From: an uncultured Bacteroidales bacterium
Lineage (GTDB): Bacteria; Bacteroidota; Bacteroidia; Bacteroidales; UBA10428
Assembly (NCBI GenBank): GCA_964461435.1
Contig: CAYWUI010000005.1
Coordinates: 8,316-72,315 of the forward strand
DNA: 64,000 bases
Reading direction: 5' to 3'
The notes below the pieces were generated by a model, which saw only the letters and a program-made list of their open reading frames with translations, made no database searches and was not told the DNA's origin. The translations under genes and the position numbers were made by a program. Shown in pieces: positions 6,154 through 23,311 of this stretch. Each line of letters starts with the position of its first letter. Within the stretch, counting starts at the first letter, position 1.

Positions 6154-6801
6154 TTACTTACCAAGAATTCCTTCCAGTTCATGTATGATGTCCTTCATGT
6201 CGGAATACTTAATCTGTCCGGGCGCAGTTGCCTTACCCTCATCCATTGAAGCATAGGTAATCTCTGATCCCATGAAAGGTGCAATAATCCGCGTTATCTT
6301 CCCCAGGCATCCCATGCAAAATGCGACTATCCTTCCGGGGTTATTATAAAGTGAAAGTATCCTTGAATTATCTATATTGGTTTTTGCTGTTGTCACTACT
6401 TTTGCAATATCTGCACCATATTCAAAACAGTCTTTCACAATTTTGTTCAGCACATCAGTTTCAGGAGTATTTCTAAAATTATGGTAAGAAATGATCACGT
6501 CGCAGTTATTCCTGTGGGCATAATCAATCAGATCTTTTCTGTAGGTTTCATCTGACTCATATTCCAGATCAACATATTTCGCTCCCGCCTTAATTGCAGT
6601 TTTTAATTTGTTTATTCTTTCGCCTTCATCGCAGATACCGGGGCGAAGGGTTGCAATTAATTTTTTGGGCTGGGAAAAAATCTCCTTAATCTTTTTAATG
6701 TCAAATTCAGTCAGGTCCAGCCTGATTTCAGCCATATCAACATTTTTTAATGTTGCAAGGCAGTTTTTTATATTTTTATCAGATATCGCTACGCAAATCA
6801 T
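6154..6801 (-). CDS. aroD: 3-dehydroquinate dehydratase, type I
   Basis: 215 aa. The N-terminus ICVAI...AEIRLD and overall length fit type I DHQase. It is the last gene of the aromatic operon and overlaps aroB by 23 nt. Confidence 0.8.
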   Translation of the reverse strand: MICVAISDKNIKNCLATLKNVDMAEIRLDLTEFDIKKIKEIFSQPKKLIATLRPGICDEGERINKLKTAIKAGAKYVDLEYESDETYRKDLIDYAHRNNCDVIISYHNFRNTPETDVLNKIVKDCFEYGADIAKVVTTAKTNIDNSRILSLYNNPGRIVAFCMGCLGKITRIIAPFMGSEITYASMDEGKATAPGQIKYSDMKDIIHELEGILGK

Positions 6802-7816
6802 TAATCATTTCCTCCATTTGTTTTAATGATACTTGTTTAATAATTGCATTTCCTATACTTTCCAGCAGAACAAGGTGAAGAGTGTCCCCTTCACGTTTTT
6901 TATCCTGTCTTATAATATCAAGGATGTCTGACGTCTCGACGTTTATTGATGTTGGTAATCCTAAATTCTCCAAAAGGCTTTTAATCCTTTTGAATTCTGT
7001 TTCTTTTATCAGCCCAAGTTTCTGAGACAGTTTCAATGCCACGATCATTCCTGCGCTCACAGCTTCGCCATGTAACATCCCGGTAAGTTTTTCAAAAGAA
7101 TGGGCAAATGTATGTCCGAAATTTAGCTTTCTTCTTTCTCCTTTTTCCTTCTCATCAGCCTCAACAACTTTGGATTTAATTAACACAGAGTCATACACCA
7201 GCTTGTTTATTACATCGGCATCCATGTTCAGGGCTTTTTTATAATTATTCTCCAGATAACTGATAACATTTTCATTTTTTATCGCACCTGCCTTAACAAT
7301 TTCTGCAAATCCGGCCACGAAATATTTTTTATCGAGGGTCTTTAACATTTCGCTGTCACATATTACAAATTCAGGCTGGTTAAAGGTCCCTATCATATTC
7401 TTATAGCCCTTAAAGTTGACACCATTTTTCCCGCCAACGCTCGCATCAACCTGTGATAGGAGGGTGGTTGATACAAATCCGAATTTTAATCCGCGCATAA
7501 ATATGGAAGCGGCAAAACCTGCTACATCGCAGACTATGCCACCTCCAATGCCTGCAATGAATGAAGAGCGGTCCACTTCATGTTCAACAAATTTAGCGAA
7601 TATATAATTAAGAGTATCAATGGTTTTAACTTTCTCCCCGAGTCCGATTTCAATGATAATGCAGGGAGGAAAGTCTCTTTTATAGAAGTGAGATACATTT
7701 GTATCCGTGATAATTACAGTTTTTGTGTCAGGAAGGTAACGGATGAGATTTTCAAGTTTCTCTCCAACAAGAATTTTAGAAGTGCGGGAATCGGTTTTTA
7801 TTTCTATGGTTTTCAT
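6779..7816 (-). CDS. aroB: 3-dehydroquinate synthase
   Basis: 345 aa with a GGGIVCDVAGFAAS nucleotide-binding loop and the HTFAH/HGEAV metal-binding motifs typical of AroB. Confidence 0.9.
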   Translation of the reverse strand: MKTIEIKTDSRTSKILVGEKLENLIRYLPDTKTVIITDTNVSHFYKRDFPPCIIIEIGLGEKVKTIDTLNYIFAKFVEHEVDRSSFIAGIGGGIVCDVAGFAASIFMRGLKFGFVSTTLLSQVDASVGGKNGVNFKGYKNMIGTFNQPEFVICDSEMLKTLDKKYFVAGFAEIVKAGAIKNENVISYLENNYKKALNMDADVINKLVYDSVLIKSKVVEADEKEKGERRKLNFGHTFAHSFEKLTGMLHGEAVSAGMIVALKLSQKLGLIKETEFKRIKSLLENLGLPTSINVETSDILDIIRQDKKREGDTLHLVLLESIGNAIIKQVSLKQMEEMINDLRSDI

Positions 7817-7820
7817 TATT

Positions 7821-8906
7821 TTATTTATTCATCACTCTTGTCTGATGATTAATAGATTCCTGATGTATTGCCCTGAAAATCTGCATAATAAATTCTTCAC
7901 TCAGGCCTTTTTTATGTGCCAGTTTAATCATGTTTTTCAGTATTTCATCCCACCTGCTTGCCTGCAATATAGTTATATTATTTTTCTTTTTATATTCTCC
8001 TATTTTTCTTGAAACGGCCATACGGCCATCCAGTATATTCAGGAGTTTTTCGTCATATTCATCTATTTCCTGTCTGAGTTCCTCGAGAGTAATAAGTAAC
8101 AAATCATCATCAATATTAGATTTTCTTAAGACAAGTTTAGCAAGAAGATTTTTGAGTTCTTCGGGAGTTATCTGTTGTGCAGCGTCGCTTAGCGCTTTTT
8201 CGGGATTGATGTGAGTTTCAATCATCAATCCGTCAAAATTTAAATCCATTGACCTCTGGGAAACTTCGAAAAGTAATTTTTTGCTTCCGCATATATGACT
8301 GGGATCGGTGATTATTGGCAGTTCGGGTATTCTGCGTTTAAGCTCAATTGGTATTTCCCAGTGCGGATTATTCCGGTACTGTGATTTGTTATATGTCGAG
8401 AATCCTCTATGTATAGCTGCGATTCTTTTTATGCCTGCATTGTTTATCCTTTCAAGGGCTCCTATCCATAGCTCTGCATCGGGATTAACAGGATTTTTTA
8501 CCATGACGGGAATATCCACACCTTTAAGCGAGTCAGCCAGTTCCTGCACAGAAAAAGGATTTACAGATGTCCTTGCACCAATCCATAATATGTCAATACC
8601 TGCTTTGAGAGCTTCGTAAACATGCTTGACATTCGCCACTTCAATTGAAGTAAACATGCCGAATTCTTCTTTTACTCTTTTTAACCATAATAAACCTCTG
8701 GATCCTACTCCTTCAAAAGAATTAGGCCTCGTCCTGGGTTTCCATATGCCTGCTCTGAAAATCTTTATTCCGTTTTTATGCAGTTGCCGGGCAGTCTCTA
8801 TTACCTGCTCTTCGCTTTCAGCACTACATGGGCCCGATATAATAAGCGGTCGGTCAAACCTTATTCCGTTAAAACTTAATCCTTCCAGTTCAAGATTTAT
8901 TCCCAT
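7821..8906 (-). CDS. Bifunctional 3-deoxy-7-phosphoheptulonate (DAHP) synthase class I-beta / chorismate mutase type II
   Basis: 361 aa. The N-terminal ~270 aa are DAHPS/KDO8PS-like (GPCSAES..., KNPVNP). The C-terminal ~90 aa form an AroQ-type CM helix bundle (LEELRQEIDEYDEKLLNILDGRMAVSRKIGEYKK). This fusion is known in Bacteroidota. Confidence 0.85.
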   Translation of the reverse strand: MGINLELEGLSFNGIRFDRPLIISGPCSAESEEQVIETARQLHKNGIKIFRAGIWKPRTRPNSFEGVGSRGLLWLKRVKEEFGMFTSIEVANVKHVYEALKAGIDILWIGARTSVNPFSVQELADSLKGVDIPVMVKNPVNPDAELWIGALERINNAGIKRIAAIHRGFSTYNKSQYRNNPHWEIPIELKRRIPELPIITDPSHICGSKKLLFEVSQRSMDLNFDGLMIETHINPEKALSDAAQQITPEELKNLLAKLVLRKSNIDDDLLLITLEELRQEIDEYDEKLLNILDGRMAVSRKIGEYKKKNNITILQASRWDEILKNMIKLAHKKGLSEEFIMQIFRAIHQESINHQTRVMNK

Positions 8907-8909
8907 AGT

Positions 8910-9770
8910 TTATTCCATTATTGATTTACCTTTCATATATTCACCCAGTATCTGCAAGTTACTGGTGAATGGTTTGATAGCTTCAACAGCTTGTTTGTAA
9001 AGCAAAAAGTCCTCTATTTCAAGATCAACATAAAACTGGTATTCCCATTCTTTGCCAATTATTGGCATTGATTGCACCTTTGTCAGGTTTATTTCATAAT
9101 AAGAAAGTATTGATAATACTTTTGACAGGCATCCTATTTTATGAGCCAGTGCAAAAGTTATTGATGATTTATTGACTTTTTTATTAGGTTTAATTTTACC
9201 ATTCTTTTCCTCCAGGATCAGAAATCTTGTATAGTTCTTTTTGTTGGTTTCTATACTGGCAGCGAGAATCTCGAGATTATACTTCTCGGCGGCAAGTGTA
9301 CTCGATATAGCACCTATGCCTGATAATTTATTATCCCTTATATCTTTTGCACTAAGTGCCGTATCAATACTATCAATCAATTTTATATGAGGATATTCTT
9401 CAAAGAACTTCTGACATTGCAGTAAAGCCATGGGATGAGAATAAATTTCCTTAATGTCTTTTATTGACTGCCCGGGAAGGGCAACAAGATTCTGTTTTAT
9501 GCGAAGATAGATTTCTCCGATTATTTTCATGTTCGATTCAAGGAGCAGAGTATAATTGGGCAAAATACTTCCTGCAAGTGAATTTTCAATAGCAGTAATG
9601 CCATAGTCCACTAATCCGTTCTGAAGTGCCGTGAATAAGTCTTTAAATGTATTTTTTGGCACAATCTCAATATTATCCTTTTCAAAATAATGAAGGGCAG
9701 CAATTTCATGAAATGCCCCATAACCACCTTGTATAGCTATTTTCTTGACTTTTGTGACTGTTTGATCCAT
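8910..9770 (-). CDS. pheA: Prephenate dehydratase with C-terminal ACT domain
   Basis: 286 aa with IAIQG..GAFHE at the N-terminus, a NYTRF motif and an ACT-like C-terminus. It is the first gene of a four-gene aromatic operon. Confidence 0.9.
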   Translation of the reverse strand: MDQTVTKVKKIAIQGGYGAFHEIAALHYFEKDNIEIVPKNTFKDLFTALQNGLVDYGITAIENSLAGSILPNYTLLLESNMKIIGEIYLRIKQNLVALPGQSIKDIKEIYSHPMALLQCQKFFEEYPHIKLIDSIDTALSAKDIRDNKLSGIGAISSTLAAEKYNLEILAASIETNKKNYTRFLILEEKNGKIKPNKKVNKSSITFALAHKIGCLSKVLSILSYYEINLTKVQSMPIIGKEWEYQFYVDLEIEDFLLYKQAVEAIKPFTSNLQILGEYMKGKSIME

Positions 9771-9798: not shown

Positions 9799-9826
9799 AA
9801 AAAAAAAGTCCCAAACTTATTGGGAC
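9799..9826 (-). terminator. Rho-independent terminator / attenuator hairpin upstream of pheA
   Basis: On the minus strand the hairpin reads GUCCCAA-UAAGU-UUGGGAC (9826->9808), followed by nine U (9807->9799). It lies 28 nt before the pheA ATG and 36 nt after the leader ORF stop. Confidence 0.6.
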
Positions 9827-9862
9827 TTCCTGTTATATTTATTATATAAACAAACAAATCCC

Positions 9863-9922
9863 TCAGGTTATTAAAAAATAGAAGTAAAAGAAGAAAGCGG
9901 ACTTGTTTGTATTGTATCTCAT
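9863..9922 (-). CDS. Candidate aromatic (Phe/Tyr) leader peptide MRYNTNKSAFFFYFYFLIT
   Basis: 19 codons plus UGA, translated by hand. There are seven consecutive aromatic codons (TTC TTC TTT TAC TTC TAT TTT). The ORF lies between a TAnnTTTG box and a terminator, directly upstream of the pheA operon. Confidence 0.55.
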   Translation of the reverse strand: MRYNTNKSAFFFYFYFLIT

Positions 9923-9942
9923 TGTCTTAGTATTTAACGGTA

Positions 9943-9950
9943 CAAAAATA
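9943..9950 (-). promoter_or_regulatory. Candidate -7 promoter box TATTTTTG for the leader/pheA transcript
   Basis: The minus-strand sequence TATTTTTG matches TAnnTTTG and sits 20 nt upstream of the leader ATG. A TTG lies about 18 nt further upstream. Confidence 0.35.
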
Positions 9951-10005
9951 ATTAAACTTTTGAAAAAACAATTAATAAAGTTAATATTTGTTATGGCTTT
10001 TAATC

Positions 10006-11523
10006 CTAACTAATGGCTTCAGCTATAAGTGTGCCTGTTTCTGCCTTTCTCCCGGCCTCGTCCACAGCAACTATTTTAAGACTATGATGCGCCTTGTCAC
10101 CGGTAATATGCTCATAGGTAAAAGGCTTTTTGGTTGTCTGCGGAGAATGTTCCATAAGGCCTATTTTCTGGTTATCGCACCATATTTCATATTGCTTTAT
10201 AGGTTCATCACCTGCATATGGCGTATGCCATGTAAGTCTAATTATACGTTTATTGTCGGGCATCTCCTGGGTAAGAAGCGGCCCACGCGGAGCTGTCAGA
10301 TTTTGTGCAGGTAATTGAAAATAATTGGTTTTACCTTCTTTAATGGAATTTGTTATCCCCTCAATTTCACGTCTATCGGTTTTTGTCAGTCCGTCCGGTG
10401 CTACCTGCGCAGCTGAAAGGTTTTGCTGCAGCTGGCATTTCTTTATGTCATCGTCAATATGTCCTATCCCTGTTATTGCAGTATTAATACCCGGCGTTGT
10501 CAGGTTATACCGGACAAGGGAGCGACTGGGCAGTGCCTGGCTGCCAACATCACGTACAATATGTCCGGGGTTGTTTGACCAGGTAGCAGGTTTCGAATAC
10601 ATTGCGCCGTCTGCAAATACCTTCATGCCAATTATTCCCATATTTTTTGCTGCTGCGACAGGTATGACATTATACTGCATATTAAAGTTTAACCTGTCAT
10701 TCGGATTTACCGCTACAAGCATGGCATCGATAATATTTTTTTCGTCCCTTTGAATCATCTCCATCATTACTGCAGGAGAATAATGTCCCGAGAATCCTAT
10801 GTGACGAATCAGCTTTTCCTCGCCGGGATTCAAACCCGTATAATTTGTGCCGTCACGATAATCGAGGAGGGCGGCGAGAGCTCCAATATGCTCGGCCTTC
10901 GGATCAGGATCATCAAGTCCCTCGTAAAGGGCGTCGACCTCTTCTATACTGCCCAGAGCATGAATAAGTACCATATCAATATAGGCACCCTGAGGATAAT
11001 ATCCTTTGCCGTCACCAAAAAGTTGTGTAAGGGTTCTTTTTATATCGTCAGCAGTTTTGGAACCTTCAGGACCATTAGTGAACACCCTGATATTCTCGTC
11101 CTGCCATCCTCCCTTTGCCCACCGCAATCCGGTTTTACTGGTAAGGAATATAGATCTTCTGAGCGATTCATTATATCCCGGTTCACCCGGCACCAGCTGC
11201 AGATGGCTGAATGCTTTTCCGTAATTTGACTGGCTTGGACCGTAAACATTCGAGGTGTCGTAATAATTTATTCCAAGATTAAAAGCTTTGAGGATAATCT
11301 TCACAGGATCAACATCTGCGGGAGTCCATTGAATTGAAGCCTGACCTCCAAGCCCCAGCGTTGTCACTTCAAAATCCAGTCTTCCGAATGCGCGTTTCAT
11401 TGGCCTCTCTATGACAATCTTACCGTAATTTATATAGGGGGCAAAAGAGAGTCCTATCGAAGCTAATGCCGATGTTTGCAAAAAGCTGCGACGTGAAATT
11501 TTGAATTCTGATTTTTTTGCCAT
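10006..11523 (-). CDS. Twin-arginine-signal aldo/keto reductase-like oxidoreductase with C-terminal FN3/Ig-like domain
   Basis: 505 aa. The N-terminus carries a Tat motif (KISRRSFLQTSALASIGLS). The core is AKR-like (YYDTSNVYG...). The C-terminal ~90 aa are beta-rich (LTWHTP...YEIW...LKIVAVDEAG). Confidence 0.75.
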   Translation of the reverse strand: MAKKSEFKISRRSFLQTSALASIGLSFAPYINYGKIVIERPMKRAFGRLDFEVTTLGLGGQASIQWTPADVDPVKIILKAFNLGINYYDTSNVYGPSQSNYGKAFSHLQLVPGEPGYNESLRRSIFLTSKTGLRWAKGGWQDENIRVFTNGPEGSKTADDIKRTLTQLFGDGKGYYPQGAYIDMVLIHALGSIEEVDALYEGLDDPDPKAEHIGALAALLDYRDGTNYTGLNPGEEKLIRHIGFSGHYSPAVMMEMIQRDEKNIIDAMLVAVNPNDRLNFNMQYNVIPVAAAKNMGIIGMKVFADGAMYSKPATWSNNPGHIVRDVGSQALPSRSLVRYNLTTPGINTAITGIGHIDDDIKKCQLQQNLSAAQVAPDGLTKTDRREIEGITNSIKEGKTNYFQLPAQNLTAPRGPLLTQEMPDNKRIIRLTWHTPYAGDEPIKQYEIWCDNQKIGLMEHSPQTTKKPFTYEHITGDKAHHSLKIVAVDEAGRKAETGTLIAEAIS

Positions 11524-21970: not shown

Positions 21971-23311
21971 ATGCTACGTGCTAAAGTCAAATATAAATTA
22001 GTTGAAACAGGGAGATTCAGGCAGAAGCTCTTAATGTGGATCGGTAATTTTCCCGTATTCTGCTACATGGACAGTAACAATTACTATGACTCATGTAAAT
22101 CGGAGTTCTTTTATCATACTTATGATGCGATTGCAGCAGCAGGCTGTAATGATATGCTTGAACCGGTTGAAAATAATGCATTCTTTGAACTGAAGGAATA
22201 CGTTAACAAAAGGAAAGACTGGATATTTGGCTACCTCAGCTATGATCTGAAGAATGAAATTGAAAATTTAACTTCAGCAAATTATGATGGAATAGGATTT
22301 CCTGTCATAAATTTTTTTCAGCCACGCCTGGTCTTCACAATAAAGGGGAAAACACTGGAAATACATTACTTCGAGGATCAATATTCCAGAGATGAAATAG
22401 AACTGCTATTTGATTACATTAATAGCATGAAAATAACAGTACAGAATATTCATTATAATATAAATATTACTGCAAGGATGTCAAAAAAGGAATATATTGA
22501 CGCGGTAAACAGTATAAAGACTCATATATATAGAGGTGACATTTACGAGATTAATTATTGTCATGAATATTACTGTGAGAATATAAGGATGGATCCCTTA
22601 TTAATTTATAATTCGCTAAAAACAATTTCTCCGGTTCCCTTTTCATGCTTTTATAAATTATTTGACAAATTCCTTATTTCAGCAAGTCCTGAGAGATTTA
22701 TCAAGAAAGCCGGAAATAAAATTATTTCTCAGCCTATGAAAGGAACAATAAAAAGAAGTGACTATCAGGGAGCGGATGAAAGCCTGAAAAGTAAGTTGAG
22801 GCATGATCCTAAAGAGATTGCAGAAAATATAATGATAGTTGATCTTGTCAGAAATGATCTTTCAAAGACAGCGGCAATGGCAAGTGTAAAACTGGAAGAG
22901 ATATGCGGACTGTATTCATTCAGTCACGTTCATCAAATGGTTTCTACCATAAGTGCCTTGTTAAAAAGTGAAGATGATATTATTGATGCTATAAAAAATG
23001 CCTTTCCTATGGGGTCGATGACAGGCGCCCCAAAGGTAAAAGCTATGGAACTTATTGAAAAATATGAAAAAACCAAAAGAGGACTTTTCTCAGGAGCTGT
23101 CGGATATTTTTCACCGGATAATGATTTTGATTTTAATGTAGTAATTAGAAGTATCTTATATAATAATACGGGGCGATATTTGTCCTATATGGTTGGAAGT
23201 GCTATTACTGCGCAATCAGTACCTGAAAATGAGTATGAGGAATGCCTGTTAAAGGCTGAAGCTATCAATCAGGTTTTTAATCTTACAGTAAAGGAAATAT
23301 CTAATGCTTGA
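21971..23311 (+). CDS. pabB: Aminodeoxychorismate synthase component I (anthranilate synthase component I family)
   Basis: 446 aa with chorismate-binding family motifs (SPERF, MKGT.KR, DLVRNDL, PMGSMTGAPK, RGLFSGAVGY). The short N-terminus fits PabB rather than TrpE. Confidence 0.75.
   Translation: MLRAKVKYKLVETGRFRQKLLMWIGNFPVFCYMDSNNYYDSCKSEFFYHTYDAIAAAGCNDMLEPVENNAFFELKEYVNKRKDWIFGYLSYDLKNEIENLTSANYDGIGFPVINFFQPRLVFTIKGKTLEIHYFEDQYSRDEIELLFDYINSMKITVQNIHYNINITARMSKKEYIDAVNSIKTHIYRGDIYEINYCHEYYCENIRMDPLLIYNSLKTISPVPFSCFYKLFDKFLISASPERFIKKAGNKIISQPMKGTIKRSDYQGADESLKSKLRHDPKEIAENIMIVDLVRNDLSKTAAMASVKLEEICGLYSFSHVHQMVSTISALLKSEDDIIDAIKNAFPMGSMTGAPKVKAMELIEKYEKTKRGLFSGAVGYFSPDNDFDFNVVIRSILYNNTGRYLSYMVGSAITAQSVPENEYEECLLKAEAINQVFNLTVKEISNA

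Follow-up and report, generated by a model that had tools for sequence, protein, structure and literature searches.

A 64,000-nt stretch of DNA from an uncultured Bacteroidales bacterium (hereafter the window, with a G+C content of 37%) carries an aromatic amino-acid operon whose first gene, pheA, is preceded by a very short open reading frame (ORF) and by segments that can fold into alternative RNA helices, and it is this candidate transcription attenuator that is analyzed here. All leader and operon features lie on the minus strand. The first regulated gene, pheA (8910..9770), encodes a prephenate dehydratase (Pfam PF00800, E=4.5e-58) and is followed, as assigned from Pfam matches, by a DAHP synthase/chorismate mutase fusion (DAHPS/CM; 7821..8906), by aroB for 3-dehydroquinate synthase (6779..7816) and by aroD for a type I dehydroquinase (6154..6801), with neighboring genes either separated by 3-4 nt or overlapping. 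The leader ORF (9863..9922) consists of 19 codons and a UGA stop (ATG at 9922-9920, UGA at 9865-9863) and reads MRYNTNKSAFFFYFYFLIT*; its ATG lies 152 nt, and its stop 92 nt, from the pheA ATG at 9770. Codons 10-16 (9875..9895) are TTC TTC TTT TAC TTC TAT TTT, an unbroken run of five Phe and two Tyr codons, and no Trp codon is present in the leader. The two strands of the window hold 1150 ORFs of 8-45 aa that start with ATG, of which the leader ORF alone contains an aromatic run of at least five residues, and dinucleotide shuffles yielded 0.075 ORFs per 64-kb window with a run of at least seven. When the window was searched for short ORFs with a run of any amino acid, followed by a terminator and located upstream of a gene, the pheA leader was the one convincing case.

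Three helices can be drawn for the leader RNA. Region 1 (ACAAACAAGUCCGCUU, 9895..9910), made up of codons 5-9 and the first base of codon 10 (Phe), is the 5' strand of an anti-antiterminator helix, 1:2. Region 2 (9850..9864), defined from the folds as the GA of the stop codon plus GGGAUUUGUUUGU, can pair with either region 1 or region 3. In minimum-free-energy folds helix 1:2 comprises 15 bp (-15.1 kcal/mol), codons 5-10 being paired with the end of the UGA and the 13 nt beyond it. The antiterminator, 2:3 (9822..9862), emerges on folding of a truncated RNA as a 17-bp interrupted hairpin of 7+6+4 bp (-13.0 kcal/mol), in which the strand GGGAUUU-UUUGUU-AUAU pairs with AUAU-AACAGG-AAGUCCC and which ties up 10 nt of the 12-nt 5' arm of the terminator. 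The intrinsic terminator, 3:4 (9799..9831; -15.2 kcal/mol), was located by a terminator scan and has a 12-bp stem, AGGAAGUCCCAA/UUGGGACUUUUU, spanning 9831-9803, a UAAGU loop and nine U at 9807-9799, the first five of which are counted within the stem; its core, GUCCCAA-UAAGU-UUGGGAC plus the nine U (9826-9799), begins 36 nt past the UGA and stops 28 nt before pheA. The energies of the three helices are thus balanced, and on the evidence of the sequence the element is a full trp-type three-helix switch.

A preliminary description of this DNA had already given the leader ORF with its seven aromatic codons, the 152-nt spacing, the hairpin, and the pairing of GGGAUU (9862-9857), which adjoins the leader stop, with AGUCCC (9827-9822) through one G.U pair, and all of these coordinates were confirmed on the minus strand. 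Its view that antiterminator and terminator exclude one another also holds, and the comparison of their folding energies that it had proposed gave the values above (-15.2 kcal/mol for the terminator vs. -13.0 kcal/mol for the antiterminator). However, the hexamer on which it based the antiterminator is only part of the 17-bp interrupted hairpin, the terminator stem is longer than was given, reaching 12 bp, and the third member of the set, the 15-bp helix 1:2, had been missed.

A PheA probe retrieved 80 loci from species-representative genomes, all of them Bacteroidales or Bacteroidota metagenome-assembled genomes with 61-92% identity, and 76 of these loci had enough upstream DNA for leader scoring. 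As the preliminary description had suggested, the regions upstream of pheA were compared, and they share the element: a mini-ORF rich in F/Y(W), with at least six of eight residues aromatic, was found upstream of pheA in 74 of the 76 loci, usually ending 50-120 nt before pheA and farther away in a few, and a strict scanner detected a terminator in 66. The same mini-ORF score was reached by only two of 2446 other 300-nt tiles from these loci and by none of the antisense strands of the leader regions. The element was also found beyond this set, with an F/Y/W-rich leader and a terminator at all 80 pheA loci of a Flavobacterium sample (L088-L167) and at approximately 50 of 54 loci of other Bacteroidales families (L190-L245), represented by Paludibacteraceae, Lentimicrobiaceae, Azobacteroides, Parabacteroides, Rikenellaceae/Alistipes, Muribaculaceae and Mediterranea. 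The (A/G)UCCC motif of the terminator arm was seen in the window clade, in Flavobacterium and across Bacteroidales, and the traits of the Bacteroidota pheA leader, namely an F/Y(W)-rich mini-ORF and an (A/G)UCCC...GGGA(C/U) terminator directly before pheA, are all found in the window element. The gene upstream of the leader is common to only one of the 80 loci, whereas DAHPS/CM, aroB and aroD lie behind pheA in the same orientation in 71, 59 and 52 of them, respectively, and the element therefore belongs to the pheA operon. Within the peptide, conservation is confined to the aromatic run, and the N- and C-termini vary freely, as expected of a leader peptide. The reading frame of the run was assessed by locating the (T[TA][TC])n block independently of any ATG and then checking each upstream frame for an ATG without an intervening stop; an ATG in frame with the aromatic block was present in 181 of 186 loci, as compared with 12 and 5 for the other two frames.

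Many of the loci closest to the window carry two complete attenuator units in series, each with its own F/Y mini-ORF and terminator (approximately 23 of 75 scanned), as exemplified by MKRNFEYNYFYFN followed by MNAGLFAYFYFFFFWVHAGPGSL. Such tandem units span L005:2218-2494, L010:2202-2479, L013:2208-2485, L006:2186-2489, L070:341-611 and L072:2225-2488, and were also seen in L015, L017, L019-L021, L026, L037, L045, L048, L049, L053 and L055. They are rare in the Flavobacterium and other-Bacteroidales samples, and only one unit is present in the window. Where two occur, they would work as a two-stage gate, in the manner of tandem riboswitches.

Upstream of the leader ATG, by 20 nt, lies a candidate -7 box of the TAnnTTTG type, TATTTTTG (9943..9950), and 18 nt farther upstream a candidate -33 element, TTG (9969..9971), which on reading of the sequence would together make up a Bacteroidota-type promoter. 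A TTG followed by a T-run is also present in the closest relatives, L002, L003 and L004. In 37 of the 76 related loci an exact TAnnTTTG precedes the leader ATG by 8-45 nt, mostly by 18-23 nt, the background expectation being 0.016 per locus. By analogy with the mapped start of Flavobacterium psychrophilum pheA, transcription is predicted to begin near 9937, which would give the leader a 5' untranslated region of approximately 15 nt.

Pairing in the relatives was assessed through alignments and through folds of individual loci. Our first alignment, A1, made with MAFFT from 20 leaders, misaligned regions 1 and 2 in about half of the sequences and was replaced by A2, an 11-sequence seed of close relatives, by R1, a covariance model, and by A4, an alignment fitted to the model. 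R1 matched the window once, with 126.8 bits, and gave 38 further matches at E<=1e-4. In A4, 86.6% of cells are paired, and 22 of the 27 pairs of helices 1:2 and 3:4 have changed on both sides. The covariation score of 0.383 compares with at most 0.12 for slid controls and was reached by none of 500 shuffles; as A4 was fitted to the model structure, which counts against these figures, the slid controls offer the fairer yardstick. In the main 1:2 helix each of the 12 pairs has changed on both sides, and examples of compensation are CAGACAGCGCC/GGGACGCUGUUG in L050 and GCAAUGCAUUC/GGGAUGUAUUGC in L030. The terminator stem is paired to 95.7%, and both sides have changed in 7 of its 11 pairs. When helix 1:2 was instead tested locus by locus against shuffles, it was significant in only 25 of 66 loci, a weaker result than that of the alignment-based test.

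For the antiterminator, anchored and duplex-energy tests took the place of fixed alignment columns, which gave no signal. In all 66 truncated folds a GGG-containing segment located between -35 and +11 of the leader stop is the pairing partner of the terminator 5' arm, and the duplex of region 2 with the arm beats shuffles at p<=0.05 in 61 of the 66 (p=0.015 for the window). Its energy averages -12.2 kcal/mol for cognate combinations vs. -9.7 kcal/mol for non-cognate ones, and over 186 loci cognate pairs are approximately 3 kcal/mol better than pairs drawn from distant arm classes. Around the invariant GGG:CCC core, covariation is seen at three flanking positions, and at each of them 0 of 500 shuffles reach the observed value. 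In 63 of 66 loci, helices 1:2 and 2:3 compete for at least 4 nt of region 2, which makes them mutually exclusive there. Between regions 2 and 3 lies an AU-rich spacer (9833-9848), which can form a small hairpin, UAUAUAAUAAAUAUA, and makes up the apical part of the window antiterminator; in relatives the same spacer holds a nearly invariant AAUAU/AUAUUA-like motif, whose columns in A1 and A2 vary little or not at all.

The position of region 2 follows the aromatic codons. Measured from the first base of the last aromatic codon, its start falls at 10-21 nt (5-95% range; median 17) across the 186 loci; relative to the stop codon it ranges from -35 to +10 and is never more than 10 nt beyond the stop. 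For the window element the first of these distances is 14-15 nt, and the start of region 2 falls 0-3 nt after the stop. Its placement differs between lineages: in the window clade and Paludibacteraceae it comes directly behind the stop (GAGCAGGAU with AUCCUGCUC as its partner), in Flavobacterium it is located inside the ORF, approximately 29 or 21 nt ahead of the stop, and in the '...GPGSL' clade it sits approximately 10-15 nt before the stop. Spacing confined in this way fits a model in which region 2 lies just past the leading edge of a ribosome stalled on the regulatory codons and is always under, or within reach of, a ribosome that proceeds to the stop.

Based on the conservation of mini-ORF, terminator and region-2 complement before pheA, on the reading frame of the aromatic codons and on their spacing from region 2, we propose, with a probability of about 85%, that the element is a ribosome-mediated Phe/Tyr transcription attenuator that controls pheA-DAHPS/CM-aroB-aroD and responds to charged tRNA-Phe and tRNA-Tyr, and the same three kinds of evidence strongly support the preliminary description, which had put forward this model with the logic of the enterobacterial pheA/pheST leaders. 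Transcription would begin a few bases past the TAnnTTTG box, and a ribosome would load on the leader AUG. With Phe and Tyr plentiful, the ribosome would pass the seven F/Y codons and arrive at the UGA, where its footprint would mask region 2 (GGGAUUUGUUUGU); region 3 would then pair with region 4, and polymerase would stop at the nine U, 28 nt before pheA. With either Phe or Tyr scarce, the ribosome would stall within codons 10-16 and keep region 1 from region 2. Since its start lies 14-15 nt beyond the first base of the last aromatic codon, region 2 would stay uncovered and would pair with region 3 as soon as the latter is made. The 17-bp antiterminator would preclude the terminator, and the operon would be transcribed. 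If the leader is not translated at all, helix 1:2 would form and leave region 3 free for region 4, leading to termination. The start of transcription, translation of the leader, stalling, the efficiency of termination and the kinetic choice between structures are all features that we infer. The mixture of Phe and Tyr codons fits an operon that contains, besides pheA, genes for DAHP synthase, chorismate mutase, aroB and aroD, and shortage of charged tRNA-Phe or tRNA-Tyr is probably what switches this operon on.

Several observations weigh against this proposal. In folds of the full-length leader the terminator-containing structure is preferred even with region 2 free (-18.3 to -20.0 vs. -13.0 kcal/mol), and read-through must therefore rest on kinetic, co-transcriptional folding, as in other attenuators. 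Helix 2:3, when examined at fixed alignment columns in the window register, is conserved and shows no covariation, which is explained by the invariance of the GGG:CCC core and by the different placement of region 2 in different lineages. The leader is missing in two of the 76 related loci. TAnnTTTG is not enriched across the window (70 found vs. 82 expected), and a single box is by itself non-significant; the position of the box given in the preliminary description is correct, and its weight comes from positional conservation in 37 of the 76 relatives. A second TAnnTTTG match, TAAGTTTG, is located 42 nt before pheA, in the terminator loop and the beginning of the 3' arm (9819-9812); L002 has TAAATTTG at the same place, and L001, L003 and L004 have no match there. 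This second match is probably due to chance, although it could in principle provide a start that bypasses the attenuator and is independent of it. Finally, the tight coupling of transcription and translation which the mechanism needs is not known from Bacteroidota.

A switch built from the same helices might also be worked by something other than a ribosome on Phe and Tyr codons, such as a TRAP- or PyrR-like RNA-binding protein, an uncharged tRNA or a small ligand, in which case the pyrimidine tract would be a binding site and not a row of codons. Masking of region 1 or 2 by any factor would indeed be enough for the alternative helices to operate, and, since Bacteroidota to our knowledge lack Shine-Dalgarno sequences, translation of the mini-ORF cannot be judged from its ribosome-binding site. 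Nevertheless, we regard such a sensor as unlikely, for a binding site would not account for an in-frame ATG at 181 of 186 loci against 12 and 5 for the other frames, for codon conservation that is limited to aromatic identity while the peptide ends vary, or for a spacing that is fixed to the last aromatic codon rather than to a sequence motif; moreover, no riboswitch or T-box matched at the Rfam threshold. Of slightly lower probability still is a translated leader that acts through Rho access, mRNA stability or re-initiation, with the hairpin serving mainly as the terminator of the upstream gene. That gene is a 505-aa ORF on the minus strand (10006..11523) with a partial aldo/keto-reductase match (E=1.2e-12), and the terminator scan found no recognisable terminator between its end at 10006 and the leader promoter; transcription of this gene may continue into the leader and stop at the attenuator terminator, which may thus also block read-through from upstream. 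Regulation by re-initiation has been proposed for short leader genes of several phyla (PMC4833913), but over a distance of 10-14 nt, far below the 92 nt between the leader stop and the pheA ATG. In addition, the complementarity of region 2 and the terminator arm extends across lineages, and the terminator travels with pheA while the upstream gene is common to one of 80 loci, a count on which the simpler idea of a hairpin that merely terminates the aldo/keto-reductase-like gene was rejected.

The remaining explanation, that a short ORF arose by chance in AT-rich intergenic DNA beside an ordinary terminator and has no regulatory role, draws on the 37% G+C of the window, which makes TTT, TTC, TAT and TAC common, and on the non-significance of the promoter box taken alone. 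The comparative sequence data have already refuted it: the leader is conserved in 74/76, 80/80 and ~50/54 orthologous loci and its helices covary, and the shuffles described above make such an ORF scarce (0.075 per 64 kb).

Two further features of the window were noted. A chorismate-binding enzyme of the anthranilate/isochorismate/PabB type is encoded on the plus strand (21971..23311) and is followed by tilS; no leader ORF or terminator was found in front of it, as the preceding ORF ends 48 nt upstream, and it does not appear to share the pheA-type control. A sub-threshold match to RefA1, an Enterococcus small RNA in Rfam, falls within the pheA coding sequence (9320..9514, minus strand; 28.5 bits, gathering score 94) and is taken as a chance match.

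The preliminary description was not aware of a Phe/Tyr leader described for Bacteroidota, but the suggestion of novelty does not stand: a leader-peptide attenuator of pheA has already been reported in F. psychrophilum (PMC9723704), so that the device is not new within the phylum, nor is the mechanism new in concept, as it follows the trp/phe paradigm of the 1970s. In the searchable literature we did not find descriptions of its breadth across Bacteroidales families, of the covarying 1:2 helix or of the spacing rule, although older comparative work (Vitreschak 2004; Lopatovskaya et al. 2010, Mol Biol) may bear on these points. A study of the Bacteroides thetaiotaomicron transcriptome describes generic leader-like small ORFs only, and Bacteroidetes are outside the coverage of Naville and Gautheret (2010). 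Rfam holds no family for the Bacteroidota pheA leader. A permissive search of the leader region returned a sub-threshold Phe_leader match together with noise, and nothing in the whole window reached gathering thresholds. The abstract of a 2004 paper by Vitreschak and co-workers in FEMS Microbiol Lett reportedly mentions candidate attenuators in Bacteroidetes/Chlorobi.

For the genome at hand, the analysis supplies a label for an intergenic region and for an unannotated 19-codon ORF of an uncultured Bacteroidales bacterium. On a wider scale, the chances seem to us evenly balanced that the window element belongs to a phylum-wide family of leader-peptide attenuators that sense Phe and Tyr, and in some lineages Trp as well; such a family could be the principal regulator of the common aromatic pathway in Bacteroidota and has so far appeared in one supplementary table only. 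The same device stands before pheA across Bacteroidia and Flavobacteriia with no RNA-family entry, and a curated model would annotate it in hundreds of genomes, including those of gut Bacteroidales. Attenuation needs a ribosome close behind RNA polymerase, and the prevalence of the element therefore offers a test of coupling in a phylum in which initiation is not led by Shine-Dalgarno sequences; if the family is real, its ubiquity would imply that the first ribosome and RNA polymerase are tightly coupled there, even though initiation proceeds without Shine-Dalgarno pairing. Of modest interest are the absence of a curated family and the tandem units in relatives.

Control of this type is already catalogued in the phylum for another operon, as the Bacteroid-trp leader (RF01692; Weinberg et al. 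2010, PMC2864571), in Rfam since 2010, is likewise a cis-regulator of the leader-peptide type that serves an aromatic amino-acid operon of Bacteroidetes. This leader differs in having Trp codons and in sitting before trpE, and RF01692 has no match in the window, whose leader is devoid of Trp codons. The Leu/phe leader of Lactococcus lactis (RF01743; PMC2864571) is a leader-peptide attenuator that includes Phe codons and resembles the window element in being a Phe-codon attenuator outside Proteobacteria; phylum and operon differ, and RF01743 has no match in the window either. The window element also has a counterpart, in principle, among leaders that combine the codons of several amino acids dependent on the regulated operon, here Phe and Tyr. 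In enterobacteria the thr leader combines Thr and Ile codons and the ilvGMEDA leader those for Ile, Val and Leu. These are different amino acids and there is no sequence relationship, the match to Thr_leader amounting to 15.6 bits against a gathering score of 55.

Closer in function is the enterobacterial pheL-pheA attenuator, reportedly described by Zurawski and co-workers in 1978. Both have a short ORF with a run of Phe codons before pheA, alternative 1:2, 2:3 and 3:4 helices, an intrinsic terminator and the same logic, whereas in the window the codons are mixed Phe and Tyr, the operon includes genes of the common pathway, the promoter is of the Bacteroidota type and no Shine-Dalgarno sequence is present. 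The corresponding Rfam family, Phe_leader (RF01859), matches the window at 9799-9910 with 24.1 bits (E=0.3; gathering score 55), that is, without detectable homology.

The nearest known system is that of F. psychrophilum pheA, for which a 171-nt 5' transcribed region with a mapped start has been described (Guerin et al. 2021, ISME Commun, PMC9723704, Table S7, SI D9). This region was annotated as a leader-peptide attenuator with read-through under specific conditions, and was reported to be conserved in other Flavobacteriaceae and to have no Rfam hit (PMC9723704). The Flavobacterium leader differs from that of the window in its greater length (22-30 aa), in usually containing Trp, in having region 2 inside the ORF, where that of the window directly follows the stop, and in an operon that continues with an aminotransferase instead of DAHPS/CM-aroB-aroD. 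R1, built from 11 Bacteroidales sequences only, matches 36 of 81 Flavobacterium pheA leaders at E<0.01, all at the expected site, with modest scores of 29-41 bits to which the shared codon run and terminator may contribute part. Similarity of this size would fit either common descent or convergence. The two elements occur in the same phylum and before the same first gene, pheA, and they share an aromatic-rich mini-ORF (F/Y/W-rich in F. psychrophilum, MNTNNTFYSNNSFYFYWNIGRDCYMVI), a GGGAUU-type region 2 complementary to an (A/G)UCCC arm, a terminator with a U-run just before pheA, and a TAnnTTTG promoter a short distance upstream.

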